DNA from: Alphaproteobacteria bacterium
Lineage (GTDB): Bacteria; Pseudomonadota; Alphaproteobacteria; UBA828
Assembly: GCA_965243315.1 (NCBI GenBank)
Contig: CBDEUP010000007.1
Span: 1,833,668-1,897,667 of the forward strand
Length of the DNA stretch: 64,000 nucleotides
Direction of reading: 5' to 3'
Shown: one piece after another, positions 24,919-52,013 of the stretch
How positions within the stretch are numbered: the stretch's first letter is position 1
Layout: each line of letters opens with the position of its first letter
Notes under the pieces: model-generated
Database searches by the model: none
Told to the model about the DNA's origin: nothing
Seen by the model: only the letters and a program-made list of their open reading frames with translations
Made by a program: the position numbers and the translations under genes

Positions 24919-24931
24919 CTAGGTACTGCGG

Positions 24932-28984: not shown

Positions 28985-29016
28985 CTCCTCTGTGCATTGA
29001 GAATCACCGGTTTCGG

Positions 29017-29322: not shown

Positions 29323-29504
29323 GGACGTTTTTGCGCATGAATGGGGAGCGCAGAACATCGTAGTGGCTGGAAGGATGGCACATATTGGGCGTAATGCTTG
29401 GATTTTCTGCCTGTTTTTCCTGGTACAAGGGAAGGTGAGGCTTGATGCGGTAGCGGGATTGTGCATAAATATATTTACATTCCTTTCCTCATGGAGCCCG
29501 CGCG

Positions 29505-32625: not shown

Positions 32626-32731
32626 GATGGCCTCCTTCCTGCCGATCCGGAAATGAACGGAAGGACGCCCCGCCGCCTGCCTTGCCTCGAACAGAGGGCG
32701 GCAGGCCGGCAGGACGTCGCGGAAGGGGCCG

Positions 32732-33625: not shown

Positions 33626-33651
33626 GCTGAGCGTGCGCACGCTATTTGAGG
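33626..33651. repeat. transposon left terminal inverted repeat
   Basis: GCTGAGCGTGCGCACGCTATTTGAGG; 25/26 complementary to 38032-38056. Confidence 0.65.
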
Positions 33652-33774
33652 GGAATCCGCCGGATTCCGCTCAGATTATTTGATGTTTGGGGCTGGGCGC
33701 CCCCCAGCCAACTTGCAAGAAGCGGGCCAGGGGGCTTGTCTCGGTGACGGTGAATCAACCTGAGACCGGTCCGA

Positions 33775-34389: not shown

Positions 34390-34439
34390 GGCGTTCTACA
34401 TGGCGTCTCCCCGGACACCGGCCAGGGAGAGACGCCGTC

Positions 34440-35921: not shown

Positions 35922-36754
35922 ACCGCCAGCACCTCACCCTCTACGGCCTCAAGTGGAATCCCTTCGCGACCGACCTGCCGGTCGAGGGTCTCATGACCAC
36001 TCCGGCCGTCGACAGCTTCTGCCTCAGGGTCGAACGCCACCTCGTGCGCGAGGGCGGCTTCGCCATGATCTCCGGCGATCCCGGCACCGGAAAGAGCGTC
36101 GCCCTGCGCCTGCTCGCCAAGCGCCTCGAACGCAACGACGCCGTGCACATCGCGGTCCTCACCCATCCGTCGTCCACCATCGGCGACTTCTACCGCGAGA
36201 TGGGCGACCTCTTCGGCATCGAGCTGATCCACAACAACCGCTGGATCGGCTTCAAGGGCCTGCGCGAGCGCTGGCGCGCCCACGTCGAGGACACCCGGCT
36301 GCGCCCGGTCCTGCTGATCGACGAGGCGCAGGAGGTGCTGCACGCCGTCCTGACCGAGCTGCGCCTGCTCGCCTCCACCGAGTTCGACTCCCGCGCCATC
36401 CTCTCGATCGTCCTGGCCGGCGACAACCGGCTCCTCGCCAAGCTGCGCAGCGAGGAGCTGCAGCCGATCGCCTCGCGCATCCGCCAGCGCCTCGTCATGT
36501 CGGCCGCCGAGCCCCGCGAGCTCGAGACGCTGCTCGACCATCTGCTCGAACAGGCCGGCAATCCGGCGCTGATGACGGCGGGCCTCAAGGACGCGCTCTG
36601 CGCCCACGCCGCGGGCAACCCCAGGTCGCTCTGCATCATGGCCGACAGCCTGCTCGTCGCCGCCGCCGAGCAGGACCGCGAGATCCTCGACGAAAAGCTC
36701 TTCATGGAGATCTGGGGCGAGCCCGTGCCGCGCGCCCAGGGGGCGCGGCGGTGA
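35918..36754 (+). CDS. TniB/TnsC-like AAA+ ATPase (ExeA-type)
   Basis: 278 aa; ATGA overlap with the transposase; Walker A ISGDPGTGKSVAL, Walker B VLLIDEAQEV, SIVLAGDNRLL. Confidence 0.75.
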   Translation: MNRQHLTLYGLKWNPFATDLPVEGLMTTPAVDSFCLRVERHLVREGGFAMISGDPGTGKSVALRLLAKRLERNDAVHIAVLTHPSSTIGDFYREMGDLFGIELIHNNRWIGFKGLRERWRAHVEDTRLRPVLLIDEAQEVLHAVLTELRLLASTEFDSRAILSIVLAGDNRLLAKLRSEELQPIASRIRQRLVMSAAEPRELETLLDHLLEQAGNPALMTAGLKDALCAHAAGNPRSLCIMADSLLVAAAEQDREILDEKLFMEIWGEPVPRAQGARR

Positions 36755-37740
36755 GCGGCTTCCCCACCCGCCACCCGGCGGCCCTGGAGGACCGGCCGCG
36801 GCAGCAGCACTGGCTGGTCGACGAGCTCTGGGCCAAGCAGGCGGTCGGCATCATCGGCGGCGAGCCCAAATGCGGCAAATCCTTCCTCGCTCTCGATGTG
36901 GCCGTCGCGGTCGCCGCCGGCGTCCCCTGCCTGCGCCACTTCGCGGCCGCCCAGACCGGCCGGGTCCTGATGTACGCCGCCGAGGACGCCGGCCACATCG
37001 TGCGCAGCCGTCTGGAGGGCATCGCCGGGGCCGCCGACACGCCCTTCGACAAGCTCGACATCGCCGTGATCGACGTCCCCACGCTGCGCCTCGACCATCG
37101 TGCCGACCGCCAGCGTCTCCAGGAGACCGTGCAACAGCTCAAGCCGCGCCTGGTGGTCCTCGACCCCCTGGTCCGCCTCCACGGCGTCGACGAGAACACC
37201 GTCGCCGAGATCGCTCCCATCCTCGGCTTCCTGCGCGACCTCCAGCGCCGGTTCGAGACCGCCGTGCTGCTCGTCCACCACGCTCGCAAGAGCGGCGCTA
37301 CGCGGCCGGGCCAGGCCCTGCGCGGGAGCAGTGAGCTGCACGCCTGGGGAGACTCCAACCTCTACCTGCGCCGCCGCGACAAGCAGATCGTCATGACCGT
37401 CGAGCACCGCGCCGCTCCCGGCCTCAACGACATCGAGATCGAGCTCGCCGATGACGGTCCGGGACCCGCCCTGCGCCTCCGGCGGGCGGTGCCGAACCAG
37501 GCCCCGCCAAAGCCGGAAACCCCCGAACAGCGCATCGTGCAGGCCCTCGCGGACGCCGATGAGCCGCTCTCCCAGTCCCAGATCCGGGAACGGGCCGCAG
37601 CCCGCAACTCAACCGTCACCGCGGCGCTGCACGAGCTCGTGCGCGAAGGACGTATCGAGCGCGGTCCGGGAGGTCGCTACCGCTACCTTGGCGGCGTGTC
37701 GAATGACGCCGCCATGCAGACCGCCAGCGCCAACGGCTAG
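36753..37740 (+). CDS. AAA_25/RepA-like (DnaB-fold) ATPase with C-terminal winged helix
   Basis: ~329 aa (GTG start overlapping tniB stop); WLVDELWAKQAVGIIGGEPKCGKSFLALDVAVAVAAG (Walker A), LVVLDPLVRLHG, LLVHHARKSG; C-terminal IVQALADADEPLSQSQIRERAAARNSTVTAALHELVREGRI wHTH. Confidence 0.6.
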
Positions 37741-38031
37741 GCGAAGCACGACGCGTTCCCGGTCCCGTTCCGGCCAACCCTTAAGGGTTCGAGGGAACGG
37801 GAACGGGAACGGCGGCGCCTATCCCCCATCGCAACCCTGCGTCAAGCAGTCGGCCCATGGCCGAAAGCTTGCCTTACGGCCATGGCAGCACTTCGTCGCG
37901 TGGACGGCAGCGGGTCACCCGAAGGGCCGTAGCGAAGCGAAGGAGCCGCGCAGCGGCTTGACGCGCTGACGGCCTCGCGACACCCCACCGGCGCGAGCTT
38001 CAGAGTCCATCAAATAGCGTGATCGGAGCGT

Positions 38032-38056
38032 CCTCAAATAGCGTGCGCACGCTCAG
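38032..38056. repeat. transposon right terminal inverted repeat
   Basis: CCTCAAATAGCGTGCGCACGCTCAG. Confidence 0.65.
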
Positions 38057-38121
38057 GCGCGAACATCGCGGGCCGTGGGGCCGGGCCTGACAGGCGCGGC
38101 GAAATAATCCGTGCAAGGGGG

Positions 38122-38153
38122 TTGACAAACCCCGAAGCGGCTCTCGTTACAAT
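38122..38153 (+). promoter_or_regulatory. sigma70-like promoter (TTGACA - 20 nt - TACAAT) immediately upstream of the pentanucleotide tract and the giant gene
   Basis: Consensus -35 hexamer at 38122-38127 and TACAAT at 38148-38153; spacer is longer than optimal. Lies 65 nt beyond the transposon right IR. Confidence 0.35.
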
Positions 38154-38156
38154 CTT

Positions 38157-38260
38157 GCCGAGCCGAGCCGAGCCGAGCCGAGCCGAGCCGAGCCGAGCCG
38201 AGCCGAGCCGAGCCGAGCCGAGCCGAGCCGAGCCGAGCCGAGCCGAGCCGAGCCGAGCCG
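38157..38260. repeat. perfect pentanucleotide simple-sequence repeat (AGCCG)x~21
   Basis: 104 nt of uninterrupted GCCGAGCCGAG...; produces the artefactual PSRAE/LGSAR peptide repeats in the ORF track on both strands. Confidence 0.95.
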
Positions 38261-38286
38261 CTTCGCCTTGCGTCCGCGCACCGGCC

Positions 38287-41200
38287 ATGAGCGCGCCGTC
38301 GGGGCGGCGGCTGTTGCCCTGGCGTCCCCTACGCCGCGGGGCGTCCCCGCCTGAGTCTTCCGCCGCCGGGCACGCCGCGTCCCGCCCGGCCCGCACCTCC
38401 TCCGAACGCTCCGCCTCTTCCTCCTCCCCCGCCCGGCGTGGCCCGCGCCGTGTGTGGCGCGGCCTGCTTGCGGCGCTGCTCGCCCTGCCGCTCGCCGCCG
38501 GCCTTGCCGCCGGGGCGCAGGCGCAGTCGACGGTGAGCTTCGCGCAGTCGAGCTACGTTGTAGACGAGGGCGAGGACGCAACGCTGACGCTGCAGCTCTC
38601 GCCCGCCCGCACGGTGGCGACGGAGGTCCGGGTGACGTTTGTGGACCTGACCACATCGCCCAAAGACTACGACGAAAGTGCGCAGACGGTGACCATCCCG
38701 GCGAACGCGACGAGCGCGACGGTGACGGTCGGGACCGAGGACGACCAGTTCATAGAAATCAAAGAGTCAGCCCGGGCCCATATCGATTCGGGCTCCCTGC
38801 CCTCCGGGGTGACGGTGGGCACGCAGGGGACTACAGACATCGTCATCACCGACAACGCGGTGCCCGCCCTGGTGTTCACGCCGAAGGCGCTGACGGTGGC
38901 CGAGGGCGGCTCGGCGAGCTACGAGGTGGCGCTGTCGCACCGGCCCCATCACGCAAGCGCCTCAATCACGGTGGCCATCTCCGGGCAGGCGGACACGGAC
39001 CTGACGCTGGACAAGACGAGCCTGACCTTCGGGCACTCGAACTGGAACCAGGCGCAGACCGTGACGGTGAGCGCGGCCGCGGACACCGACCGGACCGACG
39101 ATGCCGCGACGCTCGACCACGCCGCGTCGAGCGGAGTCTCCAAATTCAACGGAGTCACCGGCAGCCTCGCGGTAACGGTGCAGGAGAACCTGCCGGTCAT
39201 CGGCGTCTCCGCGGCGACGAGCGATTTCACCGAGGGCGACGCCTCGAAGGTGGCCTTCTCCGTCACCGCCTCGGGCGGGGAGACCGGCGACTACCCGGTG
39301 TCGGTGACGTTTGGGACGAGCGGCGCGGCGACCCAGGGTACCGACTACACCCTCCCGGCCTCGGTGACCTTGTCGGCCGACGGCGCCTCGGTGGCGGTCC
39401 CGATACTCGTCGCCGACGACGACACCGTGGAGGGCGAGGAGACCGCGGCCATCACGATACCGGCGGGCTCGGGCTACCGCCCGGACAAGGATGCCGCCAC
39501 CCACACCATGACCATCGCGGACAACGACCACTCGATTAGCTATCGGGTCCGGGGCACGCCTGTGGAGGGCAGCACGAGTACCGTGATTGGCCGGGGCAAT
39601 GGAATCATCAATTTCCAGCAACCCACCCCGCAGTTGGCGTCGGGCGAGACGATGACGATACCGCTGTCGTTCGCAGACGGCACCCTGGGCACGGACTTCA
39701 CGCTGGCGGTGGGGGATCACGACTTTGCCTCGGCGTCGGTGGACGCCACGACGGGGGTGGTGAGTGTCACGGGTCCGACGAGCAGTGCCGCCACCTTCGT
39801 TGTGCTGCTCCTTGCCAGCGAGGACACGGACACGACCGACGACACGGTGACGGTGAGCGTGGGCAGCGGCGCGACGGCGGGCGGCGGCGCCCTGGTCGCC
39901 ACCCGCCGGGGCAATGGACAGTTGACGATGCTGGACAACGACGTGTCCCAGAGCCTGACCGTGGAGTTCACCCAGTCCGGGTTCAGCGTGAACGAGGACC
40001 GGACGGTGCAGCCGGTGGCGCGCCTGTCCGAGACGGCGCGCACCGACATCGACATCCCGGTGACGGTGACCTCCGGCACGGCGACGCGCGGGGTGGACTT
40101 CGAGAGCGCCGCCGCGCGCACGCTGACCGTGTTCGCGGGCGGAACGACCGGCACCGTCTCCATCCCCATGATTGACGACGACCTGACGGAGGGCGACGAG
40201 ACCTTCACGATTGCCATCGACACCGCCTCGCTGCCGACCGGGGTGACGGCGAAGCCGGGGGGCCACCTCCAGGCGACGGTGACCATCCTCGACAACGACG
40301 AGACGCCGACGCTGTCCATCGCCGCCCCTGCGGACGCCGACGAGGGCGATGGGCTCGCGTCCACGCGGCTGTTCACCGTGGGGCTCACCCGGGCGGTGGC
40401 GGGCGCGGTGCGCTACGAGGTGTGCTTCTCGGGCACGGCGAAGTCCGCCGCTGACGCGCACCGCTCGCAGGAGCTGGTCGACTACCGGGTGCAGCGCGAC
40501 GGCGCGGGGGTGGCGGCCGAGTGCCTCGAGGACCTCACGCTCGCTGCGGGCGCGACCGCCTCGGGGCAGGCCGTCGGCATCAAGGTCCTGGGCGACACCT
40601 TCGCCGAGCCCGACGAGACGGTGGTGGCGACGCTCGAGATGAAGGCCGCGCCCGACGGCGTGCTGCTCGGCACCTCGGTCGCGACCCACGTCATCGGCAA
40701 CGACGACGGGACGGAGGCGACGCTCACGCTTGCGCCCGCGCCGGGCGCGGTGACGGCGCTCGTCGAGGGCGACGCGCCGGCGCACTTCGTCATCGACGGC
40801 ACGGGTGCCACGCCGGGCGCGGAGTACTACGTCCAGCTCGCGCTCGGCGGCGAGGCGAAGAACGGGACGGACTACCGGCTCGAGATACGCATCGACGGGC
40901 AGTGGCACCAGTTGAGCCGCAATCTGCGGCGCAGCATCTTCTCCGTGTTCGAGCTGCCGACGCGGCTTCGCCTCTTCGCGCTTGCCGACACGGCGCCCGA
41001 GGGCGACGAGCGCGCGGTGCTCACCCTTGCCGACGCGCAGGGCTACGCGCCCGGCACGCCGTCGGAGGTGACCTTCGTCATCGGCAACGGGCCGCCGGCG
41101 GTGACCGTCGAGGCGGTCGAGGCGGCGGTGACCGAGGGGGCGCCGGCGCGCTTCACGGTGCGCTTGAGCGAGGCGCAGGTCGCGGACTTCGACGTGGCGG

Positions 41201-44200
41201 TGCGCATCGCCGAGGACGGGGACGGCGACTTCGTGGCCGGGGACGACGAGGGGGTGCAGAGCTTCACCGTCCCCGCGGGCGAGACCGAGGCGGTGCTCGA
41301 GGTCGCGACCGACGACGACACGACGCACGAGCCCGGCACGGCGGTCACGGCGACGGTGGAGCCGGGCGCGGGCTACACGGTGGGCACCCCCGCCTCGGCC
41401 GCGGTCGCGGTGGCCGACGACGGGGACCTCGAGCTGTCGCACGGCATATTCCCGGCAACGGCGGGCGAGGGCAGCACGCTCGGGGCCGCACGGTTCTACC
41501 TGCGCCCGCAACGGGCGCTCGCCGCGGGCGAGACGGTGACGGTCCCGCTCGCGTTCACCGGCGGGACCCTCGGCACGGACTTCACGCTCGCGCTCGATGC
41601 CGCCTCCGCCCAAGCGTTCGGGTCGGCGTCGCTCGCCGCGGGCACGGTGACGCTCACCGGTCCGGCGGATAGGGGCAGATTGCTGAACGTGAACCTCTTC
41701 GCCGCCGAGGACGACGACGCCGACGACGAGGTGGTGACGCTCGGCTTCGGGGCGATGTCGACGAGCGCCGGGGGCGACGTCGGGCTCATGCGGTTCACCA
41801 GCGACCGGATAAAGCTGCTCGACAACGACGTCCCGCAGTCGCTCACCGTCGAGTTCACCCGCGATGCGCTCACCATCTTCGAGGACATCGGTCTCCTCGA
41901 GCCGATACTGCGGCTCTCGGAGGTGGCGCGCCGGGACGTCGCGGTCAAGGTGACGCTCACCGACGGCACGGCGGTGCGCGGGGCGGACTACGAGAGCGCG
42001 GCCACGCGCACCGTGACCTTCCCGGCGGGCAAGGAGGTCTCGGGCCTCCAGGTGAAAATCCTCATAGACAACGAGGTGGAGGGCGACGAGACCTTCATGG
42101 TGGCCATCGACACGGACTCGCTGCCGGCGGGGGTGACCGCGAAGCCGGGCGGCAATGCCGAGGCGACGGTTACCATCCTCAACGACGACACGACGGCGTC
42201 GTTCGCCGCGGCCGCCTCGAGCGCGAGCGAGGGCGCGGGCGCCCACACCGTGACGGTGAACTTCACGCCGCCGGCGGCGTCATTTACCTCCCTCCGCTAC
42301 ACCGTGGGTGGCACGGCGAGGGCGGGCGAGGACTTCACCATCGCGGGCTCGGGCAGCCTCTCGGTGCCCATCGACGCGACGAGCGTCGACATCGAGGTCG
42401 CGGTGGTCGACGACGCCGTGCCCGAGTACGCGGAGACGGTCGTGCTCACCCTGACCGACGGCGGCAGACGCATCGCCCTCGGCGCCACCACCGTCCACAT
42501 CCTCACCATCGCCGACGACGACGCGGGCACGCCGCCGAACCCGGTGCGCCTCTCGGTCTCGGACGCCGGCGCGGTGGCCGAGGGCGGGACGGTCACGGTG
42601 ACCGCGACCCTCGACCACGCCAACGCCACGGGCGGCGCGCTCGCGATACCGCTTGCGGTGCGCGCCGCCGGCACCACCGCGGCGCCCGGCGACTACACGG
42701 TGGCGTCGAGCATCGCCATCGCCGACGGCGCCACCGCCGGCACGACGGACCTCGCCGCGACCGACGACGACGCGGTCGAGGCGCCGGAGACGGTGGTGCT
42801 CGCGCTCGGCGCGGCGCTCCCCGAAGGGGTCGCCGCGGGCACGCCCGGCCACGTGACGGTCACCATCGCCGACGACGACCTGGGGCTCACCTACGGCGTT
42901 CGCGATTGGAGCGCCACGGAGGGCGAGCCGACGAGCCACGCGCGGCTCTTCGTGCGGCCGCAGTGGGCGCTCGGCGCGGGCGAGACGCTGACCGTCCCGC
43001 TCACCTTCACCGGCGGAACCTTGGGCACGGACTTCACGCTCGCCCTCGAGGCGGCCTCCGCGGCAAGGTTCGCCGCGGCGACGCTTGCCGCGGGCACGGT
43101 GACGCTCACCGGCCCGGCGCGGGCGGACGCCGCCGTGTACGTCCGCCTCTTCGCCGCCGAGGACGACGACGCCGGCGACGAGACGGTGACGCTCGGCGTC
43201 GGGACGGTGGCGTCGAGCACCGGCGCCGCGGTCGCCGCGAGCCGGCAGGGCGACGGGCGGATGACGCTGCTCGACAACGACGGCGACCTCGAGCTGCGCT
43301 ATGGCGTTTTGCCTGCCACCGCCGCGGAGGGCAGCACCACCGCCCTCCGGCAGCTCTGGCTGACGCCGCGACGGGCGCTCGCCGCGGGCGAGGCGGTGAC
43401 GGTGCCGCTCGTGTTCGAGGGCGGGACGCTCGGTACGGACTTCACGCTCGCGCCCGGTGTCCACGGGTTCGGCTCGATGGTGCTCGCCGCGGGCACGCTG
43501 ACGCTCACCGGTCCGGCGAATCGGGGCGCCACCGGGTTCGTGAACCTCTTCGCCCTCGAGGACGACGACGCCGACGACGAGGTGGTGACGCTCGGCTTCG
43601 GAGCGGCCTCGTCGAGCACCGGCGCCGCGGTCACGCACACCCGGTTCGGCGACGGGCGCATCACGCTGCTCGACAACGACGCCCCGCAGTCGCTCACCGT
43701 CGAGTTCGCCAGCGATGCGTTCGGCGTCTACGAGCACAACGGTCCCGCCGAGCCGGTGCTGCGGCTCTCGGAGGTGCCGCGCCGCGACGTCGCGGTGCGG
43801 GTGACGGTGACCTCCGGCACGGCGGTGCGCGGGGAGGATTTCCTGAGCGCGGCCACGCGCACCGCGACCTTCCCGGCGGGGGGCGCCACGACCACGAACG
43901 TCCCGATGACCCTCCCCAACGACGCCCTGGTGGAGGGCGACGAGACCTTCACGGTGGCCATCGACACGGCCTCGCTGCCGGCGAACGTGACGGCGAAGCC
44001 GGGCGGCAACGTCCGGGCGACGGTCACCCTCTTCGACGACGACACCGCGACGGTGGGGTTCGCGCGCGGCGCGCTCGCGGTGCGCGAGGGCGATGCGGCG
44101 CGCCCGGTGCTGGTGCTCTCCAAGGCGTTCGCCGCCGATGTCACGGTCGGCGTCGAGGACGCCGCGGGCACCGCCACCGCGCCCGGCGACTACGCGGCCG

Positions 44201-47200
44201 GTCCGTACTCGGTGACCTTCCCCGCGGGCGCCAAACGCGCGGCGTTCGACGTGGCGACGGTCGCGGATTCCACCGCCGAGGGCGCGGAGACGTTCTCGCT
44301 GCGGATACCGGCCGCGGGCCTCCCGGCGGGGATGGGCCTTGCCGCGGCGGGCGCCGCCACCCCGCCCGAGGCGACCGTCACCGTCTCCGAGAGCGCGCCG
44401 CCGAGCGTGCCCGAGGCGGCGTTCGCCGCGGGCGAATCGGACGCGGGCGAGGCCGCGGGCACCCGCACCGTGACGGTGCACCTCGTACCGCCGCCGACCT
44501 CGCCGCTCGCGCTCGCCTACACCGTGGGCGGCACCGCGACGGCGGGCGCGGACTTCACCATCGCGGGCTCTGGCATCGTCGCGGTGCCCGCGCACGCGAC
44601 CGGCGTCGACATCGAGGTGGCGGTGCTCGACGACACCGCGCAGGAGTCCGACGAGACGCTCGTCCTGACGCTCGCCGCCGGCGCGGGCTACACGGTGGGC
44701 GCCCCGGGCGTGCACACGCTCACCCTTGCCGACGACGACGCGCCGCCGCCCGCGCCCGTGGTCTCGGTCGCGGGCACGCCGGGCGCCGAGGGCGGCGCGC
44801 CGGCGCGCTTCCTCCTCACCGCGCGCCCGCGGCCCGCGGGCAGCGTCGCGGTGACGGTCGCGGTGACGCAGAGCGGCGGCTATGCCGGCCCGGGCGAGAC
44901 CGGCACGCGCACCGTGACGATGGACGCGTCGGGCTCGGCGCTGCTCGACGTCGCGATTGCCGACGACGCCATCGACGAGCCGGACGGCAGCTTCACCGCG
45001 ACGGTGCGCCCCGGCACGGGCTACGCGGTGCACGCAAGCGCTGCCGCCGCCACCGTGGCGGTGGCCGACGACGACCCGACCCGGGTGACGCTTGCGGGCT
45101 CCGCGGACGCAATCCCCGAGACCGGGGGGACGAAGACGCTGACGGTGCGCCTCGCCCGGGCGCTGGTCGCACCGGAGACGCTCGCGGTGCCGCTCGTGTT
45201 CGCAGGCGAGGCGGTGCGGGGCCTCGACTACACGCTGAGCTGCGGCAACGACACCGGCGCGGCCTGCCGCGACCTTGCGGGCGAGGCGCCGCGCATCGAG
45301 TTCAGCGCCGGCGGGCGCACCGCGACGGTGACGCTCGCCGCCGCCGGCGACGCCATCAACGAGGGCGCGGGCGAGACGGTGACGGTGGCGCTCGGTGCGC
45401 TCGACGCGAGCTCGGGCACCGGCCTCGGCGGGGGTGCGGCGGGCGCAGGCAGCGTCGCGTTCACCATTACCGACGACGACGCGGGCCCGGAGCCGGGTAT
45501 TGTGCTGCCCGATACGGACGTGGCCGTGGTCGAGGGCGCGACGGCGAGCTACGAGCTCAAGCTCGCCTCCGACCCCGGCGACGGCGCCACGGTGCGGGTG
45601 AGCGTCACCTCCGCGGACACCGGCGCGGTGACGGTGAGCGACACCCAGTCGGGTGTGAACGGCACGCAGGACTGGCTCGACTTCACCGGCGGCGCCGCCG
45701 GCACCTGGAGCACCGCCCAGACGGTGACCGTCGCCGGCGTGCACGACGCCGACTCCGCCCACGAGGCGGACGTGGCGCTCGCCCACGCCGCGAGCGTGCA
45801 GGCGGGCACGAGCGCGCCCTATGCGGGGCTTGCGAGCCGGACGCTCCACGTCGACGTGACCGAGGACGACGCGGCCGAGGTCGGCTTCAAGCAGGACGCC
45901 CACGCGGTGGACGAGGGCGACGACGCGACGCTCACGCTCACGTTCACGCGCGCGCTAGGGAGCGACGTGACCGTGCGGGTCCTGCTGACCGGTCTCGGGG
46001 CGACCGGCTCGGGCGTCGACTTCGACTCGACCCCGCGCTCGATTGCCGTCCCGGCGGGGACGGTGGAGCAGGCGTTCACCGTCTCGACCGTCGAGGACGA
46101 GAAGTTCGAGGGCTACGAGACCTTCCAGGCGACGATTCTCGCCCTCGGCCTCCCCGACGACCTGGCGCTCGCCGCCGCGCACCGCTCGACCGTCACCATC
46201 GTCGACGACGAGGCCTCGGTCTCGCCCGCGCTCGACGCCGGCATCCACGAGGGCGAGACGCTGACCTACACCGTCTCGGGAATCGACCCCGCGCATGCGA
46301 GCGTGACGCTCCTGGCCGCCACCTCGAGCACCGCGACCCGCGACGTCGACGGGACGTGGGACGCGGGCGAGGACTACCGCCTGCTTCGCCCCGGCGACCC
46401 CGAGGACACGGTGCTCGGCGCGACCGACACCCTCACCCCCTCGGGCGGGGCGGTGACGTTCCGCATCAAGACGCGCGCCGACACCGACGACACCGAGGGC
46501 GACGAGACGGTGGTGTTCGAGATGGAGCTTCCGGGTGTCTTGGGGGAGGCGGCGCTCGGGACGCTGGCGCTGAAGAACGGCCCGCGCCTCGAGGCTGGGG
46601 TCGCGCTCTCCGCGCAAACCCTCGCCCTCGACGAGGGGACGACCGGCACCTACACCGTGGCGCTCACCCTCGCGCCCGCCCCGGGCGAGACGGTGACCGT
46701 CACCGCGGCGAGCCCCGATGCGGGCGCGGTGCGGGTGCACGCCGCCGGCGGCTCCCCGGGGGCGCGCGCGACGCTGACCTTCACCGACGCGACCTGGAGC
46801 GCCGCGCAGACGGTGACGGTGACCGCGCTCTCCGACTTCGATGCGAGCGACGAGCGCGTCGACATCGCGCACGCGGTCGAGGGCACGGGCGCGTACGCGG
46901 ACGTGACCGCGCCGGCGGTGGCGGTCACGGTGGACGACGACGAGGTGCCCGTCGTGGTCTCGGTCGCCGCGGGCGCGGCGGTGGATGAGGGCGGGGCCGC
47001 GACCTTCACGGTGACGGCGACGCCTGCGCCGCCCCGCACGCTTCGCATCGCGCTCGCGCTCGGCGAGACCGGCGCGTTCCTCGCCCCGGGCGCCACGCTG
47101 CCTGCGGTGCACCTCAGCCCCACCCGGGCGTCGCAGAGCGTCTCGCTCGCGACCGAGGACGACACGGTCAACGAGGCGCACGGCGCGGTGACGCTCACCG

Positions 47201-49554
47201 TGGAGGCGGGGACCGGCTACGTCGTGGCGGCCGCGCCGGACCACACCGCGAGCGTCGAGGTCCGCGACGACGACGGGGCGGGCATGCCGGTGGTGAGCAT
47301 CGCGAGCGCGCAAAGCCCCGGCGCGACCGCGTTCGAGGGCGACGCGCTCGTCTTCACGGTGCGCGCCGACCCCGCGCCCGCGGCCGAGCTCGCCGTCACC
47401 GTCGGCGTCGCCGAGAGCGCGGGCAGCGCCTTCGTCGTCCCCGGCGGAACGGGGAACAAGACGGTGACGATTGCGGCGAACGCGCGCACGGCGACGCTGA
47501 GTGTCGCGACCGTCCAGGACACCGACGAGGAGGACCCGGCGTTCGCGACGGTGACGGCGACGGTGGCGCACGCGCCGGGCTACACCGTCGCCGATGCGCC
47601 GCGCGACAGCGCGCAGGCGACGGTCTCCGACGACGACGGGCTGCCCGGGGTCACCATCCACGACGCGCAAGCCGAAGAGGGCGACCCGATGTTCTTCCGG
47701 GTGACGCTCTCGAAGGCGGCGGCCCACACCGTCGAGGTGAAGTGGGCGACGAGGTTCGAGTACGACGCCAACAAGTGGGAGACCGGCAGCGCCCGCTACA
47801 CCCTCGACTACACGAGCGCCAACGGCATCCTGCGCTTCGCCCCGCGCGAGACCGTGCGCGAGATCCTGATCTACACCGTCGACGACGCCCACGACGAGGG
47901 CGACGAGACGTTCGAGGTGGAGCTCTCCGACCCTGTGGGGGCGGTGATAGCCGACGGCCTCGCGACGGGGACGATCACGAACGACGACCCGCTGCCCGCG
48001 GCCTGGCTCGCGCGCTTCGGGCGCACGGTGGCGGAGCAGGCGCTCGAGGGCGTCGCGGACCGCATCGCCGCCCCGCGCAAGCCGGGGATGCAGGGCACGC
48101 TCGCCGGGCAGGCGCTGAGCCCCTCGACAGGCTCGGGACAGGCGCTCGACCCGGCGGCTTCCGGCCAGGCGGCGGGCGGAACGCCCGGCACGGCGGCGCT
48201 CGCGCTCGCCGACGTGGCGCGCCGCTTCGGCGACGGCCCGTTCGATCCGTTCGGTCATGGCGCCGCGCCGGGCCCCGGCGCGGCGCAGGCGCAATCGCGC
48301 ACGATGACCGCGAGCGAGGCGCTGCTCGGGTCGAGCTTCACGCTGACCGGCGAGACGGACGGCGCGGGCGGCACCATGGCCTTCTGGGGCCGGGCGGCGC
48401 AGTCGAGCTTCGACGGCGTCGAGCGGGGCGCCGGCACCGACATCGCCCTCGACGGCACGGTGACCACCGGCATGCTGGGCGCGGACTATGCGCGCGGGCC
48501 CTGGCTGGTGGGGCTTGCGCTGACCCTGAGTTCGTCCGAGGGCAGCTATGCCGCCACCGGCGATCGGGATCCCTGTCCCGGTACGGACGCGGACCGGTGC
48601 GACGGCGCGGTGCGCGCCGGCGACGGCACGCTGGAGGCGTCGCTGACGGCGGCGGTGCCCTATGCGTCGTGGCGGGCCTCGGAGCGCCTCAAGCTCTGGG
48701 GCGCGCTCGGCTACGGCGCCGGCGAGGTGACGCTGAAGACGGGCATGGGCGAGCGCCTCGGCGCGGACATCGACTGGACCATGGCGGCGGCCGGCCTGCG
48801 GGGCGACGTGATCGCGCTGCCCATGGAAGGCTCCGGCCTTGCCCTCGCGGTGACCTCGGACGCCATGTGGGCGCGCACGGCCTCGGAGAAGACACGGGAC
48901 CTTGCGGCGTCGGAGTCCGACGTGACCCGGCTCAGGCTCGGGCTGGAGGGAAGCTACCGCGTCGCCCTCGAAGAGGGCGGCAGCCTGACGCCGAAGCTGG
49001 AGGTGGGCGCGCGCCATGACGGGGGCGACGCCGAGACCGGGTTCGGGGTCGAGCTCGGCGGCGGCATCGCCTGGGTCGACCCGGCGCTCGGGCTCTCGCT
49101 CGATCTCTCGGGCCGCACGCTGATCGCGCACGGCAACGACGACCTGGAGGACCATGGCTTCGCGGCTTCGCTCGCCTGGGACCCGGCCCCGGCGACGAAG
49201 CGGGGTCCGTCGCTGACGCTCACCCAGGACTGGGGCGGGCGGGCCGAGGGCGGCCTCGACGCGCTGTTCGCGCCGGACCCGCTGGAGGACCGGACGGGCA
49301 ATGGCGAGCCGACCTCCCGCTGGGCCATGGAGGCCGCATACGGCCTGCCGGCCTTCGGCGGGCGCTGGACCGGCAGCCCGCATGCCGGGCTGGGGCTCGC
49401 GACCGGCACGCGCGACTACACGATCGGCTGGCGGCTAGCGCCGGAAGCGGCCAACGCGCCCGACCTGTCGCTCGGTCTCAAGGCCACCCGCCGGGAGAGC
49501 GACACGGCCGAGCCCGAGCATAGCGTCGGGGTCGAAGTCCGTGCCAGATGGTGA
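38287..49554 (+). CDS. giant secreted surface protein (~3.7k aa): N-terminal signal peptide, >25 Calx-beta domains interleaved with a ~150 aa repeated module, C-terminal autotransporter-like outer-membrane beta-barrel
   Basis: Open frame 38122-49554. Plausible starts are ATG 38287 or GTG 38452 (MWRGLLAALLALPLAAGLAAGAQA|QSTV signal peptide). Calx-beta signatures recur, e.g. VTVTSGTAVRGEDF...LVEGDETFTVAIDTASLP...ATVTLFDDD. C-terminal 280 aa have alternating-hydrophobic beta-strands and end ...SVGVEVRARW (terminal aromatic typical of OMP barrels). Confidence 0.8.
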   Translation: MSAPSGRRLLPWRPLRRGASPPESSAAGHAASRPARTSSERSASSSSPARRGPRRVWRGLLAALLALPLAAGLAAGAQAQSTVSFAQSSYVVDEGEDATLTLQLSPARTVATEVRVTFVDLTTSPKDYDESAQTVTIPANATSATVTVGTEDDQFIEIKESARAHIDSGSLPSGVTVGTQGTTDIVITDNAVPALVFTPKALTVAEGGSASYEVALSHRPHHASASITVAISGQADTDLTLDKTSLTFGHSNWNQAQTVTVSAAADTDRTDDAATLDHAASSGVSKFNGVTGSLAVTVQENLPVIGVSAATSDFTEGDASKVAFSVTASGGETGDYPVSVTFGTSGAATQGTDYTLPASVTLSADGASVAVPILVADDDTVEGEETAAITIPAGSGYRPDKDAATHTMTIADNDHSISYRVRGTPVEGSTSTVIGRGNGIINFQQPTPQLASGETMTIPLSFADGTLGTDFTLAVGDHDFASASVDATTGVVSVTGPTSSAATFVVLLLASEDTDTTDDTVTVSVGSGATAGGGALVATRRGNGQLTMLDNDVSQSLTVEFTQSGFSVNEDRTVQPVARLSETARTDIDIPVTVTSGTATRGVDFESAAARTLTVFAGGTTGTVSIPMIDDDLTEGDETFTIAIDTASLPTGVTAKPGGHLQATVTILDNDETPTLSIAAPADADEGDGLASTRLFTVGLTRAVAGAVRYEVCFSGTAKSAADAHRSQELVDYRVQRDGAGVAAECLEDLTLAAGATASGQAVGIKVLGDTFAEPDETVVATLEMKAAPDGVLLGTSVATHVIGNDDGTEATLTLAPAPGAVTALVEGDAPAHFVIDGTGATPGAEYYVQLALGGEAKNGTDYRLEIRIDGQWHQLSRNLRRSIFSVFELPTRLRLFALADTAPEGDERAVLTLADAQGYAPGTPSEVTFVIGNGPPAVTVEAVEAAVTEGAPARFTVRLSEAQVADFDVAVRIAEDGDGDFVAGDDEGVQSFTVPAGETEAVLEVATDDDTTHEPGTAVTATVEPGAGYTVGTPASAAVAVADDGDLELSHGIFPATAGEGSTLGAARFYLRPQRALAAGETVTVPLAFTGGTLGTDFTLALDAASAQAFGSASLAAGTVTLTGPADRGRLLNVNLFAAEDDDADDEVVTLGFGAMSTSAGGDVGLMRFTSDRIKLLDNDVPQSLTVEFTRDALTIFEDIGLLEPILRLSEVARRDVAVKVTLTDGTAVRGADYESAATRTVTFPAGKEVSGLQVKILIDNEVEGDETFMVAIDTDSLPAGVTAKPGGNAEATVTILNDDTTASFAAAASSASEGAGAHTVTVNFTPPAASFTSLRYTVGGTARAGEDFTIAGSGSLSVPIDATSVDIEVAVVDDAVPEYAETVVLTLTDGGRRIALGATTVHILTIADDDAGTPPNPVRLSVSDAGAVAEGGTVTVTATLDHANATGGALAIPLAVRAAGTTAAPGDYTVASSIAIADGATAGTTDLAATDDDAVEAPETVVLALGAALPEGVAAGTPGHVTVTIADDDLGLTYGVRDWSATEGEPTSHARLFVRPQWALGAGETLTVPLTFTGGTLGTDFTLALEAASAARFAAATLAAGTVTLTGPARADAAVYVRLFAAEDDDAGDETVTLGVGTVASSTGAAVAASRQGDGRMTLLDNDGDLELRYGVLPATAAEGSTTALRQLWLTPRRALAAGEAVTVPLVFEGGTLGTDFTLAPGVHGFGSMVLAAGTLTLTGPANRGATGFVNLFALEDDDADDEVVTLGFGAASSSTGAAVTHTRFGDGRITLLDNDAPQSLTVEFASDAFGVYEHNGPAEPVLRLSEVPRRDVAVRVTVTSGTAVRGEDFLSAATRTATFPAGGATTTNVPMTLPNDALVEGDETFTVAIDTASLPANVTAKPGGNVRATVTLFDDDTATVGFARGALAVREGDAARPVLVLSKAFAADVTVGVEDAAGTATAPGDYAAGPYSVTFPAGAKRAAFDVATVADSTAEGAETFSLRIPAAGLPAGMGLAAAGAATPPEATVTVSESAPPSVPEAAFAAGESDAGEAAGTRTVTVHLVPPPTSPLALAYTVGGTATAGADFTIAGSGIVAVPAHATGVDIEVAVLDDTAQESDETLVLTLAAGAGYTVGAPGVHTLTLADDDAPPPAPVVSVAGTPGAEGGAPARFLLTARPRPAGSVAVTVAVTQSGGYAGPGETGTRTVTMDASGSALLDVAIADDAIDEPDGSFTATVRPGTGYAVHASAAAATVAVADDDPTRVTLAGSADAIPETGGTKTLTVRLARALVAPETLAVPLVFAGEAVRGLDYTLSCGNDTGAACRDLAGEAPRIEFSAGGRTATVTLAAAGDAINEGAGETVTVALGALDASSGTGLGGGAAGAGSVAFTITDDDAGPEPGIVLPDTDVAVVEGATASYELKLASDPGDGATVRVSVTSADTGAVTVSDTQSGVNGTQDWLDFTGGAAGTWSTAQTVTVAGVHDADSAHEADVALAHAASVQAGTSAPYAGLASRTLHVDVTEDDAAEVGFKQDAHAVDEGDDATLTLTFTRALGSDVTVRVLLTGLGATGSGVDFDSTPRSIAVPAGTVEQAFTVSTVEDEKFEGYETFQATILALGLPDDLALAAAHRSTVTIVDDEASVSPALDAGIHEGETLTYTVSGIDPAHASVTLLAATSSTATRDVDGTWDAGEDYRLLRPGDPEDTVLGATDTLTPSGGAVTFRIKTRADTDDTEGDETVVFEMELPGVLGEAALGTLALKNGPRLEAGVALSAQTLALDEGTTGTYTVALTLAPAPGETVTVTAASPDAGAVRVHAAGGSPGARATLTFTDATWSAAQTVTVTALSDFDASDERVDIAHAVEGTGAYADVTAPAVAVTVDDDEVPVVVSVAAGAAVDEGGAATFTVTATPAPPRTLRIALALGETGAFLAPGATLPAVHLSPTRASQSVSLATEDDTVNEAHGAVTLTVEAGTGYVVAAAPDHTASVEVRDDDGAGMPVVSIASAQSPGATAFEGDALVFTVRADPAPAAELAVTVGVAESAGSAFVVPGGTGNKTVTIAANARTATLSVATVQDTDEEDPAFATVTATVAHAPGYTVADAPRDSAQATVSDDDGLPGVTIHDAQAEEGDPMFFRVTLSKAAAHTVEVKWATRFEYDANKWETGSARYTLDYTSANGILRFAPRETVREILIYTVDDAHDEGDETFEVELSDPVGAVIADGLATGTITNDDPLPAAWLARFGRTVAEQALEGVADRIAAPRKPGMQGTLAGQALSPSTGSGQALDPAASGQAAGGTPGTAALALADVARRFGDGPFDPFGHGAAPGPGAAQAQSRTMTASEALLGSSFTLTGETDGAGGTMAFWGRAAQSSFDGVERGAGTDIALDGTVTTGMLGADYARGPWLVGLALTLSSSEGSYAATGDRDPCPGTDADRCDGAVRAGDGTLEASLTAAVPYASWRASERLKLWGALGYGAGEVTLKTGMGERLGADIDWTMAAAGLRGDVIALPMEGSGLALAVTSDAMWARTASEKTRDLAASESDVTRLRLGLEGSYRVALEEGGSLTPKLEVGARHDGGDAETGFGVELGGGIAWVDPALGLSLDLSGRTLIAHGNDDLEDHGFAASLAWDPAPATKRGPSLTLTQDWGGRAEGGLDALFAPDPLEDRTGNGEPTSRWAMEAAYGLPAFGGRWTGSPHAGLGLATGTRDYTIGWRLAPEAANAPDLSLGLKATRRESDTAEPEHSVGVEVRARW

Positions 49555-49567
49555 ACGACGCGAGTCC

Positions 49568-49712
49568 GATGCGCGATGCCGTGGAGACGGGCGACGGGAG
49601 CCGGGCATGGCTCTTCCTGCGCCGCGTCCCGGAATACGAGGCGGCATGGCGGGCGCGGCCACCGACGGCAGCGCCGGGCGTCATGCCCGGTGACGGTTGG
49701 CAAACCGGCTGA
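49568..49712 (+). pseudogene. N-terminal fragment of a DUF2285/DUF6499-type protein (a family usually found at the ends of alphaproteobacterial ICEs)
   Basis: MRDAVETGDGSRAWLFLRRVPEYEAAWRAR... resembles the conserved W.(F/W)LRRNP.Y...W N-terminal motif of that family, then terminates after ~47 codons. Family assignment is from memory. Confidence 0.3.
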
Positions 49713-49828
49713 TAGAGTGCGCCGGGAATCGCGGTCGGCGGCGGGGACTTCCGGGGCCGGGCCGGAGGGGCCGTCGCCCGCCGCCCTCTTGCACCCCTGG
49801 ACCCCGATGGACTGAAGTTGGAGTGAAT

Positions 49829-49854
49829 CCGCTTACAGTACGCTTACACCGGCC
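49829..49854. repeat. right copy of imperfect direct repeat CCGCTTACAGTACGCTTACACCGGCC (candidate attR core)
   Basis: See 7707-7734. Confidence 0.3.
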
Positions 49855-49856
49855 CG

Positions 49857-52013
49857 ATGGGACCGTCTTTGGATCGGGTCGGGATCGTGCCGCAAGATAT
49901 TGATAAAAAGACAAAAAACGCCGTAGCGCAAGGCCGATTCCGCATCGGGGTGGACGTGGGCGGCACCTTCACCGACCTCATCATTACCGACGGCGAGACG
50001 CGCGAGAGCGCGATCCACAAGGTGCCCACCACGCCGGACGACCCGTCGGAGGGGGCCGCCGCGGGCATCGCGGCACTCTGCGAGCGGAGCGGCACGGCGC
50101 CCGACGCCATCGCCCACGTCTTCCACGGCACCACGATCTCGACCAACGCGGTGCTCCAATACGACGGCGCCGAGACCGGCATGATCACCTCCGCCGGCTA
50201 CCGCGACATCATCCATATCGGCCGTCACCAGCGGCCCCAGAACTACTCGATCATGCAGGACATCCCGTGGCAGGCGCGCCCGCTGGTGCGCCGCCGGCAC
50301 CGCCTCACGGTGAAGGAGCGGCGGGTGCCGCCGCAGGGCGACGTGCTGGAGCCGCTCGACGAAGAGGGCGTGCGCCAGGCCGCGCGGACGCTGCGCGACA
50401 AGGGCGTAGAGGCCGTCGCCATCTGCTTCCTCTTCGCCTACATCGACCCCACGCATGAGGAGCGCGCGCGGGCCATCGTGTTGGAGGAATGGCCTGAGGC
50501 CTTCGTCACCACCTCGGCCCGGGTCGCGCCCCAGTTCCGCGAGTTCGAGCGCTTCACCACGGCGGCGATGAACGCCTTCATCGGCCCCAAGGTGCGCAAC
50601 TACGTGCGCCGCTTCGAGGACCGGCTGAAGCAGGGCGGCATCGCGGGCGACCTCCACATCATGGGGTCCAACGGCGGCGTCGCGACCGCGGCGATGGTGG
50701 CGGACGTGCCGGTCATCACCCTGATGTCGGGGCCGGCGGCCGGCGTGCTGGGCGGTGCCTGGGCGGCAGAGCATTCCGGCCGGCGCCGCCTCATCACCTT
50801 CGACGTGGGCGGCACCAGCGCCGACATCGGCATCGTGATCGACGGCCGCTACAACGAGGCCACCGCGCGCGACACCTGGATCGGCGGCTATCCGGTGCTC
50901 GTGCCGATGATCGACATCACCACCATCGGCGCAGGCGGCGGCAGCATCGCCCGCACCGATGCCGGCGGCGCCTTCAAGGTGGGGCCGGAGAGCGCGGGCT
51001 CCGAGCCCGGCCCCGCCTGCTATGGCAGGGGCGGGGACGCGCCCACGGTCACCGACGCCAACCTCGTGCTCGGCCGGCTGGATGCGGACAACTTCCTCGG
51101 CGGCGAGATGACGCTCGCGCCCGAGCGCGCCGATCAGGCGCTCACAGAGCTTGCCGAGACCCTCGGCGTTGACAAGCACGAGGCGGCCGAGGGCGTGCTC
51201 ACCATCGTCAACAGCAACATGGCGAACGCCATCCGCTCCAAGACGGTGCAAAAGGGCCTCGACCCGCGCGACTTCTCGCTGGTCGCCTTCGGCGGCGCGG
51301 GGCCGCTCCACGGCGCCGAGGTCGCGGCGATGCTCGACGTGCCCGAGGTCGTGGTGCCGCCCCATCCCGGCATCACGTCCGCGGCGGGGCTGCTCACCAC
51401 CGATCTCAAGTACGACCAGATCATGACCGCCTTTCAGGTCAAGGGCGCGGTCGATATCGGGCGGATCAACGGCGACTTCGCGTGTCTGAGCCGCGACCTC
51501 CTGGCCCAGTACGAGGCCGCCGGCCTCGGTGCCGACCGGGTGGAGGAGCGCCGTGCCGGCGACCTGCGCTACGTCGGCCAGGGCTACGAGCTGCGCGTGG
51601 CCTTCCCGGCGGATGAGCTGGACGAGGCCGGGCTGGAGGAGGTCTGGCAGGCCTTCCATGCCCTGCACGAGCAGGAATACGGCCACTGCTTCACCGAAAG
51701 CCCCATCGAGATCGTGAACATCCGCATCACCGGCGTCGGCCGCATGCCCAAGATCGCGGCACCGCCTGCGCCCGCCGGCGGATCGCTGGAAGAGGCGCGG
51801 GTCAAGACCGCGCGTTCGGTCTTCCGCGTGGACGGCGCGCTCGAGGGCTACGACACCGCGTTCTACAGGCGCGAGGCGCTGCCGGTCGACGAGCCGTTCG
51901 CCGGCCCCGCGGTCATCCTGCAAACGGATGCCACAACCGTGGTGCCGCCCGACTGGTCGGTGCGAGTCGACACGAGCGCCAACCTCATCTTGCGCCTGGG
52001 CGAGGAGGACTAG
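49857..52013 (+). CDS. hyuA: hydantoinase/oxoprolinase A subunit (Hydantoinase_A family, N-methylhydantoinase A/acetone carboxylase-like)
   Basis: 718 aa; FRIGVDVGGTFTDLIITDGE N-terminal ATPase motif; DVGGTSADIGIV second actin-fold phosphate motif. The true start may lie downstream of the AT-rich 49860-49920 leader. Confidence 0.9.
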   Translation: MGPSLDRVGIVPQDIDKKTKNAVAQGRFRIGVDVGGTFTDLIITDGETRESAIHKVPTTPDDPSEGAAAGIAALCERSGTAPDAIAHVFHGTTISTNAVLQYDGAETGMITSAGYRDIIHIGRHQRPQNYSIMQDIPWQARPLVRRRHRLTVKERRVPPQGDVLEPLDEEGVRQAARTLRDKGVEAVAICFLFAYIDPTHEERARAIVLEEWPEAFVTTSARVAPQFREFERFTTAAMNAFIGPKVRNYVRRFEDRLKQGGIAGDLHIMGSNGGVATAAMVADVPVITLMSGPAAGVLGGAWAAEHSGRRRLITFDVGGTSADIGIVIDGRYNEATARDTWIGGYPVLVPMIDITTIGAGGGSIARTDAGGAFKVGPESAGSEPGPACYGRGGDAPTVTDANLVLGRLDADNFLGGEMTLAPERADQALTELAETLGVDKHEAAEGVLTIVNSNMANAIRSKTVQKGLDPRDFSLVAFGGAGPLHGAEVAAMLDVPEVVVPPHPGITSAAGLLTTDLKYDQIMTAFQVKGAVDIGRINGDFACLSRDLLAQYEAAGLGADRVEERRAGDLRYVGQGYELRVAFPADELDEAGLEEVWQAFHALHEQEYGHCFTESPIEIVNIRITGVGRMPKIAAPPAPAGGSLEEARVKTARSVFRVDGALEGYDTAFYRREALPVDEPFAGPAVILQTDATTVVPPDWSVRVDTSANLILRLGEED

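Follow-up and report, generated by a model that had tools for sequence, protein, structure and literature searches.

We analyzed a 64,000-nucleotide stretch of DNA (the window) from an alphaproteobacterium of the lineage UBA828 (assembly GCA_965243315.1, contig CBDEUP010000007.1, positions 1,833,668 to 1,897,667), in which a single giant gene encodes a protein of 3,755 residues. We conclude, with a probability of about 0.68, that this gene encodes a self-exported surface filament made of Calx-beta domains and anchored in the outer membrane, which is carried by a mobile element and whose expression is switched or tuned by a hypermutable repeat. The analysis establishes the domain content, the lack of type I secretion features, the size of the family, the ends of the element, and both the hypervariability and the conserved position of the repeat. 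We infer display at the cell surface, an effect of the repeat on expression, and a role in adhesion to a host. A first-pass annotation, made from the sequence alone, had described a Calx-beta protein with an unusual, type Va-like arrangement next to a transposon; this is partly supported, since the protein is autotransporter-related, mobile, and not a substrate of type I secretion, yet neither rare nor canonical.

Domain structure of the giant protein

The ~3.7k-aa reading frame claimed earlier is real. It is open on the plus strand from TTG 38122 or ATG 38287 to the stop codon at 49554, and its GC content at third codon positions (GC3) is 0.94. We favor ATG 38287 as the start because it is kept in three near-identical copies of the gene (L001, L002, and L081, all from the related metagenome-assembled genome (MAG) GCA_965243325.1), because the two indels that lie between it and the hydrophobic core relative to L001 and L002 are each 6 nt, and because the alternative start GTG 38452 is not conserved, reading GCG in the near-identical copies. 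A homologue search with the N-terminal 420 aa did not find a near-identical full-length protein.

The expected Sec signal peptide is present, as judged by inspection, but it is long: a 58-aa extension rich in Arg, Ser, and Pro precedes the h-region, GLLAALLALPLAAGLAAG, with a positively charged n-region and a cleavage site between AQA and QS. Signal peptide and extension (..SPPESS..) are conserved among family relatives, in which the leader after the repeat follows the main-frame pattern M.A.AW.RR...SPPESS...RRPASSSDSF...RRLRRGL; 49% of the single-nucleotide differences among relatives in this region are synonymous. We also considered export through the Tat pathway given the RRGL motif, and rejected it by reasoning that an unfolded autotransporter substrate of 3,700 aa is a Sec client.

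The passenger is a long string of beta-sandwich domains. Pfam Calx-beta (PF03160) matches it with an E-value of 2.1e-102 and 337.9 bits against a cutoff of 27, in nine stretches above threshold. A profile iterated on the giant protein itself detects 25 Calx-like domains between residues 110 and 3234, and their spacing points to about 27 beta-sandwich domains in total; the array is real, then, with 'two dozen' a more accurate count than the 'dozens' first proposed. In a profile search against the sequences of solved structures, the acidic DDD and EGDE motifs align with the Ca2+-binding domains of NCX1, the Na/Ca exchanger; the passenger domains are predicted to bind Ca2+. The protein as a whole is acidic (D+E 13.4%, K+R 5.5%).

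Four copies of a ~150-aa module are interleaved with these domains, as had been described. They represent a divergent Calx-like subtype with pairwise identities of 62-84% in nucleotides and 46-66% in protein, and a canonical Calx-beta domain follows three of the four, forming a two-domain super-repeat of ~265 aa. A 42-mer quoted earlier as a near-identical repeat exists but was overstated: it lies at 41818 and 43669 (not 41821 and 43680), the second copy has two mismatches, and no exact internal repeat is longer than the 45 nt shared by positions 41706 and 43557. The gene had also been called recombination-prone. It is 96.9% identical to L081, compared to 99.4-99.9% for the island backbone, and in 250-codon windows the synonymous divergence from L081 alternates between 0 and ~0.12; this mosaic indicates recombination between diverged copies of the gene, and it supports the description better than the internal repeats do. 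The overall dN/dS is 0.56-0.86, with a value of 0.22 in codons 3501-3750, which cover most of the barrel.

Downstream of the passenger lie a conserved amphipathic helix, a linker predicted to be disordered, and a beta-domain. The amphipathic strands ending in VEVRARW that had been assigned to the last ~280 aa are predicted here as well, but in a domain of ~400 aa. TIGR01414, the NCBIfam autotransporter barrel, matches the window protein with 22.7 bits against a cutoff of 16. The Pfam autotransporter family PF03797 matches 5 of 41 close homologues (70-76% identical to the window barrel; best E-value 5.3e-9), and in one of them, P0061, positions 1-207 of its 255 cover strands 1 to ~10. Strand 12 ends in ...FAASLAW, resembling the canonical C-terminus of an autotransporter; six more amphipathic strands follow, up to the terminus ...VGVEVRARW. 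The final Trp (W521 of the C-terminal 521-aa segment) is invariant in alignments of 41, 75, and 95 sequences.

AlphaFold predicted 18 strands in two models. The first model, from the 41-sequence alignment, has a mean confidence score (pLDDT) of 71.9 and contains the conserved helix, a disordered linker of ~80 aa, and 18 strands; the second, of the barrel alone from 95 sequences, has a pLDDT of 75.5 and again 18 strands, the last five at 72-88. Within the 521-aa segment, most of the linker (residues 45-106) scores below 50. Directly before the barrel stands only a short helix, at residues 108-113, and the conserved 24-residue helix lies about 100 residues ahead of strand 1. Among the structural hits, sequence identity is highest for solved autotransporters, BrkA (20%) and EstA (18%). 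Mean-field direct coupling analysis of 316 barrel sequences (effective number 147) for pairing of strand 1 with strand 12 or 18 was dominated by gap artifacts, and the scores of adjacent strands were no higher than background. An alignment of the 120-aa extension with strands 1-12 by hhalign (E-value 0.048) gave no firm evidence for duplication of hairpins. We conclude that the C-terminus forms an enlarged homologue of autotransporter beta-domains, the number of strands being a prediction, and that it is probably not a canonical type Va barrel. Of the type Va-like proposal, the signal peptide, the TIGR01414 match, and the terminal Trp stand; the 18 predicted strands point away from a 12-strand barrel.

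The 5' repeat and promoter-like elements

The first-pass annotation began its feature at the ATG and missed a hypervariable (GCCGA)n repeat just upstream. There are 20.8 copies of the unit in the window, 22 in L081, 23 in L001, and 25 in L002; the 100 nt upstream of the repeat are identical in the window, L001, and L002. Copy number also differs between paralogues with identical flanks: 7 in L004 and 17 in L005, 10 in L021 and 4 in L058, 13 in L031 and 29 in L032.

Such repeats are a feature of the family. In 80 related loci (1.41 Mb), 39 of the 40 perfect simple sequence repeats of at least 30 nt lie at the 5' ends of family genes, two of these 39 at contig ends; by arithmetic from the locus counts, they are ~1,900-fold denser there than in the DNA around. 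When the threshold is relaxed, a repeat is present in 32 of 59 complete family genes, three more repeats are split from their reading frame by frameshifts, and nine lie elsewhere in the loci. Unit lengths are 8 (the GCCGGATC/GCCGGGTC group, among others), 7, 5, and 4 nt, and the units occur in 4 to 40 copies; none of the 13 unit types has a length divisible by 3. Some genes that seem to be repeat-less retain the promoter-like element with only one or two units. Two short-read MAG contigs (L035 1-48 and L044 1-48) end exactly in the 8-nt repeat of a family-gene 5' end; assemblies are therefore interrupted by these repeats, and full-length members may be underrepresented in short-read MAGs.

In most family loci, TTGACA and TA(T/C)AAT hexamers abut the repeat, with spacers mostly of 20 or 23 nt that show dyad symmetry in a subset. 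L015, L027, L031, L033, and L054 have 23-nt TTGACA-TATAAT spacers with dyads, for example TGAGGGG-GC-TCCCCTCA; these are reminiscent of the operator sites in MerR-type promoters, where the spacers are 19-20 bp. Rfam detects no family in the leader region, and leaders containing the repeat fold no more stably than shuffled sequences, so that we claim no special RNA structure. A metagenome scan for the promoter-plus-repeat 45-mer of the giant gene gave no match.

Past the repeat, two features close the other frames. An invariant GCCTGA in the leader (window 38340-38354, with an equivalent site in ~30 loci) reads in the main frame as CCT (Pro) followed by GA., where CCT is an odd codon for a gene with a GC3 of 0.94, and in another frame as a TGA stop. 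In nearly all cases the start codon belongs to an ATGA, which gives TGA in the third frame. Both non-gene frames are therefore closed soon after the repeat. About a third of the repeat-bearing family genes lack an in-frame start after it: L011, L015, L027, L031-L034, L051, L054, and L056 have no in-frame ATG, GTG, or TTG between repeat and signal peptide. In L027 and L031-L033, the only ATG opens a 12-codon reading frame (MVVPPKALRLPA, then a stop) that ends at the conserved TGA, where a +1 shift would enter the main frame. In L001 149-1600 the ATG that follows the repeat does not share the frame of the rest of the gene, and main-frame similarity resumes only from residue 435 on, so that L001 is either disrupted or misassembled.

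The position and variability of (GCCGA)n suggest a putative contingency-type expression switch. Three observations favor a 'volume control' in the 5' leader or promoter: the -10-like hexamer abuts the repeat, the ATG downstream of it is conserved, and start codons upstream share the frame of the gene only at chance level.

Family, habitat, and the mobile element

The first-pass annotation considered the arrangement unusual, but the barrel is found in a very large family, for which we found no published description. Relatives of the 521-aa C-terminus number at least 954 proteins at 53-77% identity, many of them carrying PF03160. An exhaustive search of 1.84 billion representatives returned the barrel in 6,832 clusters at E<=1e-3 and 2,635 at E<=1e-30; the best 150 matches are 53-80% identical and lie in proteins of 1,000-7,300 aa. 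In contigs sampled at one genome per species, 429 stretches encode a relative. The source MAGs belong to Alpha- and Gammaproteobacteria (including Candidatus Poriferihabitaceae), Binatia, Spirochaetia, Nitrospirales, Acidobacteria, Gemmatimonadota, and Thermodesulfobacteriota, at least six phyla in all. Because several family loci lie on megabase-scale long-read contigs (from Alpha- and Gammaproteobacteria, Binatia, Spirochaetia, and Nitrospirales), mis-binning cannot explain this spread. Some genomes have a pair of family genes less than 10 kb apart, as in L017, where the two converge, and in L018, where they are in tandem; every gene has a promoter-like element of its own, and the repeat lengths are very different (2 and 32 units in L017).

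Several named sources of the family point to sponges. The SB06xx-series bins are listed among sponge-associated Poribacteria genomes (PMC7883664); the prefixes CAR, COS, and RHO, as we read them, match the three sponge species of one study (PMC8163846); and hits of the N-terminal search include 'Gammaproteobacteria bacterium AqS3' and 'Synechococcus sp. SB0669'. Calx-beta domains are reported to be enriched in sponge microbiomes (PMC9531527, PMC11706023), where eukaryote-like and adhesion domains of symbionts, Calx-beta among them, are both enriched and laterally transferred (PMC9531527, PMC11706023, PMC8163846). Few symbiont lineages encode classical secretion systems, and the route of such proteins to the surface is unclear (PMC8163846). 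Our literature search found no paper linking Calx-beta domains to autotransporters or to repeats.

The claim that the gene lies on a mobile island beside a transposon end is borne out, and the island can now be bounded (Table 1). Its ends are imperfect 17-bp direct repeats, and in silico deletion of 7543-49966 joins 7487-7542 to 49967-52013, restoring an intact hydantoinase A frame of 700 aa; for these reasons we define it as a 42,424-bp integrative element, which provides the gene it targets with a new 5' end. In L081, where a serine recombinase likewise lies upstream of the giant gene, the backbone with 99.4-99.9% identity is the part upstream of that gene, and homology with the window stops at 49966. 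The element also carries a Fic protein, two more integrases, and a single-stranded DNA-binding protein; no type IV secretion genes were seen in the reading frames scanned. The exact protein for hydantoinase B of the window is not on record.

The transposon next to the giant gene has perfect 24-bp terminal inverted repeats, TGAGCGTGCGCACGCTATTTGAGG (TGAGCG...TTTGAGG), and is flanked by a 5-bp target duplication, GGCGC, at 33623-33627 and 38056-38060. Its site is empty in L001, L002, and L081, and its right end is 66 nt upstream of the giant gene's TTGACA. We give it no family name because its transposase matches lie below curated cutoffs. Just past its last gene is a 58-nt near-perfect palindrome at 37754-37811 (CGTTCCCGGTCCCGTTCCGG...CTTAAGGG...GGGAACGGGAACG).

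Table 1 Features of the giant gene and of the element that carries it, in window coordinates.
Feature	Position	Strand	Remarks
Displaced native 5' end of hydantoinase A gene (MSSTTEGARYVLAVDVGGT)	7487..7542	+	short open reading frame ending in attL core
attL core GTCGATGTCGGCGGCAC	7526-7542
Integrative (mobilizable) element, 42,424 bp, in hyuA	7543..49966	.	giant gene is last cargo gene
Tyrosine integrase beside attL	7803..8987	+	Pfam Phage_integrase, Arm-DNA-bind_3
TrwC-type relaxase/helicase	9969..13016	+	Pfam TrwC (E 5e-84), AAA_30
Large serine recombinase of island	30262..32340	+	Pfam Resolvase, Recombinase, Zn_ribbon_recom
DDE transposon, 4,428 bp	33628..38055	+	helix-turn-helix (HTH) protein, rve transposase, AAA_22 ATPase, protein with AAA_25 and winged HTH
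Promoter-like hexamers TTGACA-N20-TACAAT	38122..38153	+	end 3 nt before repeat
Perfect simple sequence repeat (GCCGA)20.8	38157..38260	+	TRF, 100% matches; 26 nt to ATG
Giant surface-protein gene (putative)	38287..49554	+	3,755 aa plus stop
Signal peptide, 79 aa	38287..38523	+	58-aa extension, then h-region
Passenger	38614..47988	+	~27 tandem beta-sandwich domains, 25 detectable as Calx-beta-like; DDD / EGDE motifs
Module copy 1, divergent Calx-like subtype	39538..39990	+
Module copy 2	41422..41880	+
Module copy 3	42874..43278	+
Module copy 4	43276..43740	+
Amphipathic helix AAWLARFGRTVAEQALEGVADRIA	47998..48069	+	highly conserved in family consensus; AlphaFold2 pLDDT 81-93
Gly/Ala/Pro/Gln-rich linker of variable length	48070..48333	+	predicted disordered; poorly conserved
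Autotransporter-related outer-membrane beta-domain	48334..49551	+	~400 aa, 18 predicted strands, beta-signal VEVRARW
C-terminal extension, ~120 aa, strands 13-18	49195..49551	+	past the part aligned to the 12-strand profile
Hydantoinase A gene	49857..52013	+	first ~37 codons island-derived
attR core GTGGACGTGGGCGGCAC	49950-49966		inside hydantoinase A gene, downstream of giant gene

A gene for an MmeI-family restriction-modification enzyme appears to be split into an N-terminal plus helicase-spacer part (15892-17043) and a part with the methyltransferase and target recognition domain (18412-20670); between them a reading frame for a reverse transcriptase (17096-18754; RVT_1, E-value 2e-37) is probably a group II intron insertion. 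A dip in GC content to 0.555 (20000-22000) adjoins two tandem tyrosine-integrase genes on the minus strand (21700-24085), which suggests that the island is itself composite, with nested elements. In L081, an IS66-family element (TnpA/TnpB/DDE_Tnp_IS66; 21214-23932) lies just after the giant gene, at the equivalent of window 49652-49659; the 8-nt alignment overlap at this site is consistent with a target duplication.

Rival readings, mechanism, and known systems

Several observations weigh against a self-exported filament behind a repeat switch. Pfam, which finds Calx-beta, reports no autotransporter domain for the window protein or for its last 521 aa, and a family profile run against the sequences of solved structures matched no autotransporter, its only hits being to Calx-beta domains of NCX. 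Both AlphaFold2 models do predict the strands of a barrel, but 18 of them and not 12. The structural matches are generic for mid-size barrels; once the helix is removed the top match is CymA, and the Foldseek TM-score against BrkA is only 0.58. Unlike in classical autotransporters, a disordered linker of ~100 aa parts the conserved helix from strand 1. On the side of the repeat, ~40% of family genes have no long repeat, and a strict sigma-70 scan reports no site at TTGACA-N20-TACAAT, because the spacer is 20 nt and not 17. Start codons upstream share the frame of the gene in 8 of ~21 cases, as expected by chance. Finally, we infer the sponge origin of the window's own genome from its relatives.

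Two alternatives concern the route and final location of the protein. Its size, its acidity, and its tandem Ca2+-binding, Ig-like repeats are all found in type I-secreted RTX adhesins such as LapA and SiiE, but this reading is refuted, and we regard it as close to impossible: the protein has an N-terminal signal peptide, contains no GGxGxD motif, and ends in an amphipathic beta-domain with a final Trp, and no genes for an ABC exporter, membrane fusion protein, or TolC were found among the reading frames scanned across the window. The first-pass annotation had likewise argued for export by another route. The C-terminal domain could instead be merely a large, porin-like anchor in the outer membrane that translocates nothing, leaving the passenger in the periplasm or dependent on some other exporter. 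We consider this very unlikely, given that strands 1 to ~10 share sequence homology with autotransporter beta-domains, that the highest identities among the structural hits are those to BrkA and EstA, and that thousands of relatives carry very different large passengers N-terminal to the barrel, the pattern of a display module. Moreover, we know of no precedent for a Ca2+-binding rod of 3,100 aa in the periplasm.

The repeat, too, can be read in other ways. It may be translated from an upstream start, so that gain or loss of 5 nt shifts the frame and acts as a true ON/OFF switch, in the manner of the CTCTT repeats of Neisseria opa genes; the start would be TTG 38155 here, which is in frame through the repeat (the window gene would be ON), or the ATG of TATAATG in many relatives. 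The unit lengths, none divisible by 3, the conserved early stops in both other frames, the missing Shine-Dalgarno sequence before ATG 38287, and the third of repeat-bearing relatives lacking an in-frame ATG after the repeat all speak for translation. Yet with TA(T/C)AAT as a -10 element, transcription would begin within the repeat; a canonical start is missing from the 15 nt upstream in 13 of 34 loci; and the downstream ATG and the peptide that follows it are conserved. The frame test of the upstream starts neither supports nor excludes translation. On balance we think a translated repeat possible but somewhat unlikely. A repeat without any regulatory role is more doubtful still: a neutral, self-expanding microsatellite, or in part an artifact of assembly, that hitch-hikes with a horizontally spreading promoter-leader cassette. 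Copy numbers from 1-2 to 40 show no obvious optimum, short GC palindromes in the units would favor slippage anyway, and many family genes do without a long repeat. Against this, repeats with different unit sequences occupy the same position in at least six phyla, they are ~1,900-fold enriched there, units of 3, 6, and 9 nt are absent, and the repeats are seen in both short-read and long-read assemblies, with some short-read contigs ending in them.

We therefore return to the filament behind a contingency-type repeat and propose how it might work. The long Sec-type signal peptide would direct the protein to the periplasm, where the autotransporter-related beta-domain, with its last strand ending in Trp, would be inserted in the outer membrane by the beta-barrel assembly machinery (BAM). 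In Ca2+-rich sea water, the passenger of ~3,100 aa would then be displayed outside as a rod, rigid and acidic. The protein could do without dedicated secretion genes, which fits carriage on a 42.4-kb element and the occurrence of the translocator across at least six phyla. The (GCCGA)n repeat that separates the promoter-like hexamers from the start codon would change length by slipped-strand mispairing, and this would switch or tune expression stochastically, making the gene a contingency locus. Least certain is its role, which may be Ca2+-dependent adhesion to, or mimicry of, the host matrix in sponge-associated bacteria; we propose contact with the host because of the apparent habitat of the family and because the sponge protein MAFp4 is itself a string of Calx-beta domains.

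A broader scenario, unlikely to hold in all its parts, is that sponge-associated bacteria of many phyla share a portable surface-display cassette, moved by horizontal transfer on integrative elements, with which each lineage stochastically varies the display of giant host-like filaments. The cassette would consist of the promoter, a hypermutable 4-8-nt repeat switch, the long conserved leader and signal peptide, and an enlarged 18-strand translocator derived from autotransporters. By analogy with the ~29-domain arm of MAFp4, the filament described here might dock onto, or hide from, the adhesion and self-recognition system of the host.

If correct, these proposals matter in several ways. If a type V-like translocator is self-sufficient and depends on Sec and BAM alone, this would explain both how symbiont proteins are exported and how easily such genes cross between phyla. 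Host-adapted pathogens are seen as the typical bearers of contingency loci; a conserved repeat switch before thousands of surface genes of mutualists would extend this strategy to environmental symbioses, and repeat length in sequencing reads would provide a handle on surface variation of symbionts inside a host that eats bacteria. Confirmed by structure, an 18-strand barrel would be a new structural form of the autotransporter beta-domain.

Compared with classical type Va proteins (AIDA-I, NalP, EspP, BrkA, and EstA), whose beta-domains have ~270 aa and 12 strands, the domain here has ~400 aa and 18 predicted strands, and a disordered linker of ~100 aa, together with an additional conserved helix, precedes it. 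Calx-beta sandwiches in tandem make up the passenger in place of a beta-helix, and the 58-aa signal-peptide extension is different as well. Inverse autotransporters (type Ve), such as intimin and invasin, carry a long Ig-like array on a barrel in a single polypeptide, and the array folds domain by domain outside the cell. The giant protein resembles them in its long beta-sandwich array, predicted to be displayed from its own barrel anchor, but their barrel is N-terminal with 12 strands and their domains are of the Big type, whereas the barrel here is C-terminal and the domains are Calx-beta.

The type I-secreted adhesins LapA, SiiE, and MpIBP and the BapP protein of Pseudoalteromonas tunicata are likewise very large, acidic, and built of tandem Ca2+-binding beta-sandwiches, including Calx-beta; they act in adhesion and biofilm formation, and BapP also has a Sec signal (PMC12153261, PMC7616799). 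In contrast, the giant protein has no RTX repeats, the reading frames scanned across the window include no type I secretion genes, and its anchor would be its own C-terminal barrel.

Contingency repeats are known at adhesin genes of host-adapted bacteria: 7-bp repeats lie between promoter and ATG in hmw1/2 of H. influenzae, (AGAT)n in the 5' UTR of uspA2 of M. catarrhalis, (TAAA)n at nadA of N. meningitidis, and (CTCTT)n in the signal-peptide region of Neisseria opa genes. As at these loci, a hypermutable repeat lies at the 5' end of the giant gene and its copy number varies between otherwise identical copies. The differences are that the repeats described here recur in paralogues and in the genes of environmental, symbiotic bacteria from several phyla, that they are GC-rich 4-8-mers in up to 40 copies, and that their effect on expression is putative. 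Another case is badE of Bartonella, a trimeric autotransporter with simple sequence repeats early in its reading frame (PMC11466379).

The giant protein also shares its domain type with the arm of the sponge aggregation factor, MAFp4, an extracellular filament of ~29 tandem Calx-beta domains that functions in cell adhesion and allorecognition (PMC11670116, PMC5400394). The passenger described here has ~25-27 such domains, and an interaction between the two filaments is hypothetical. MAFp4 is a glycosylated animal protein joined to a ring of wreath domains.

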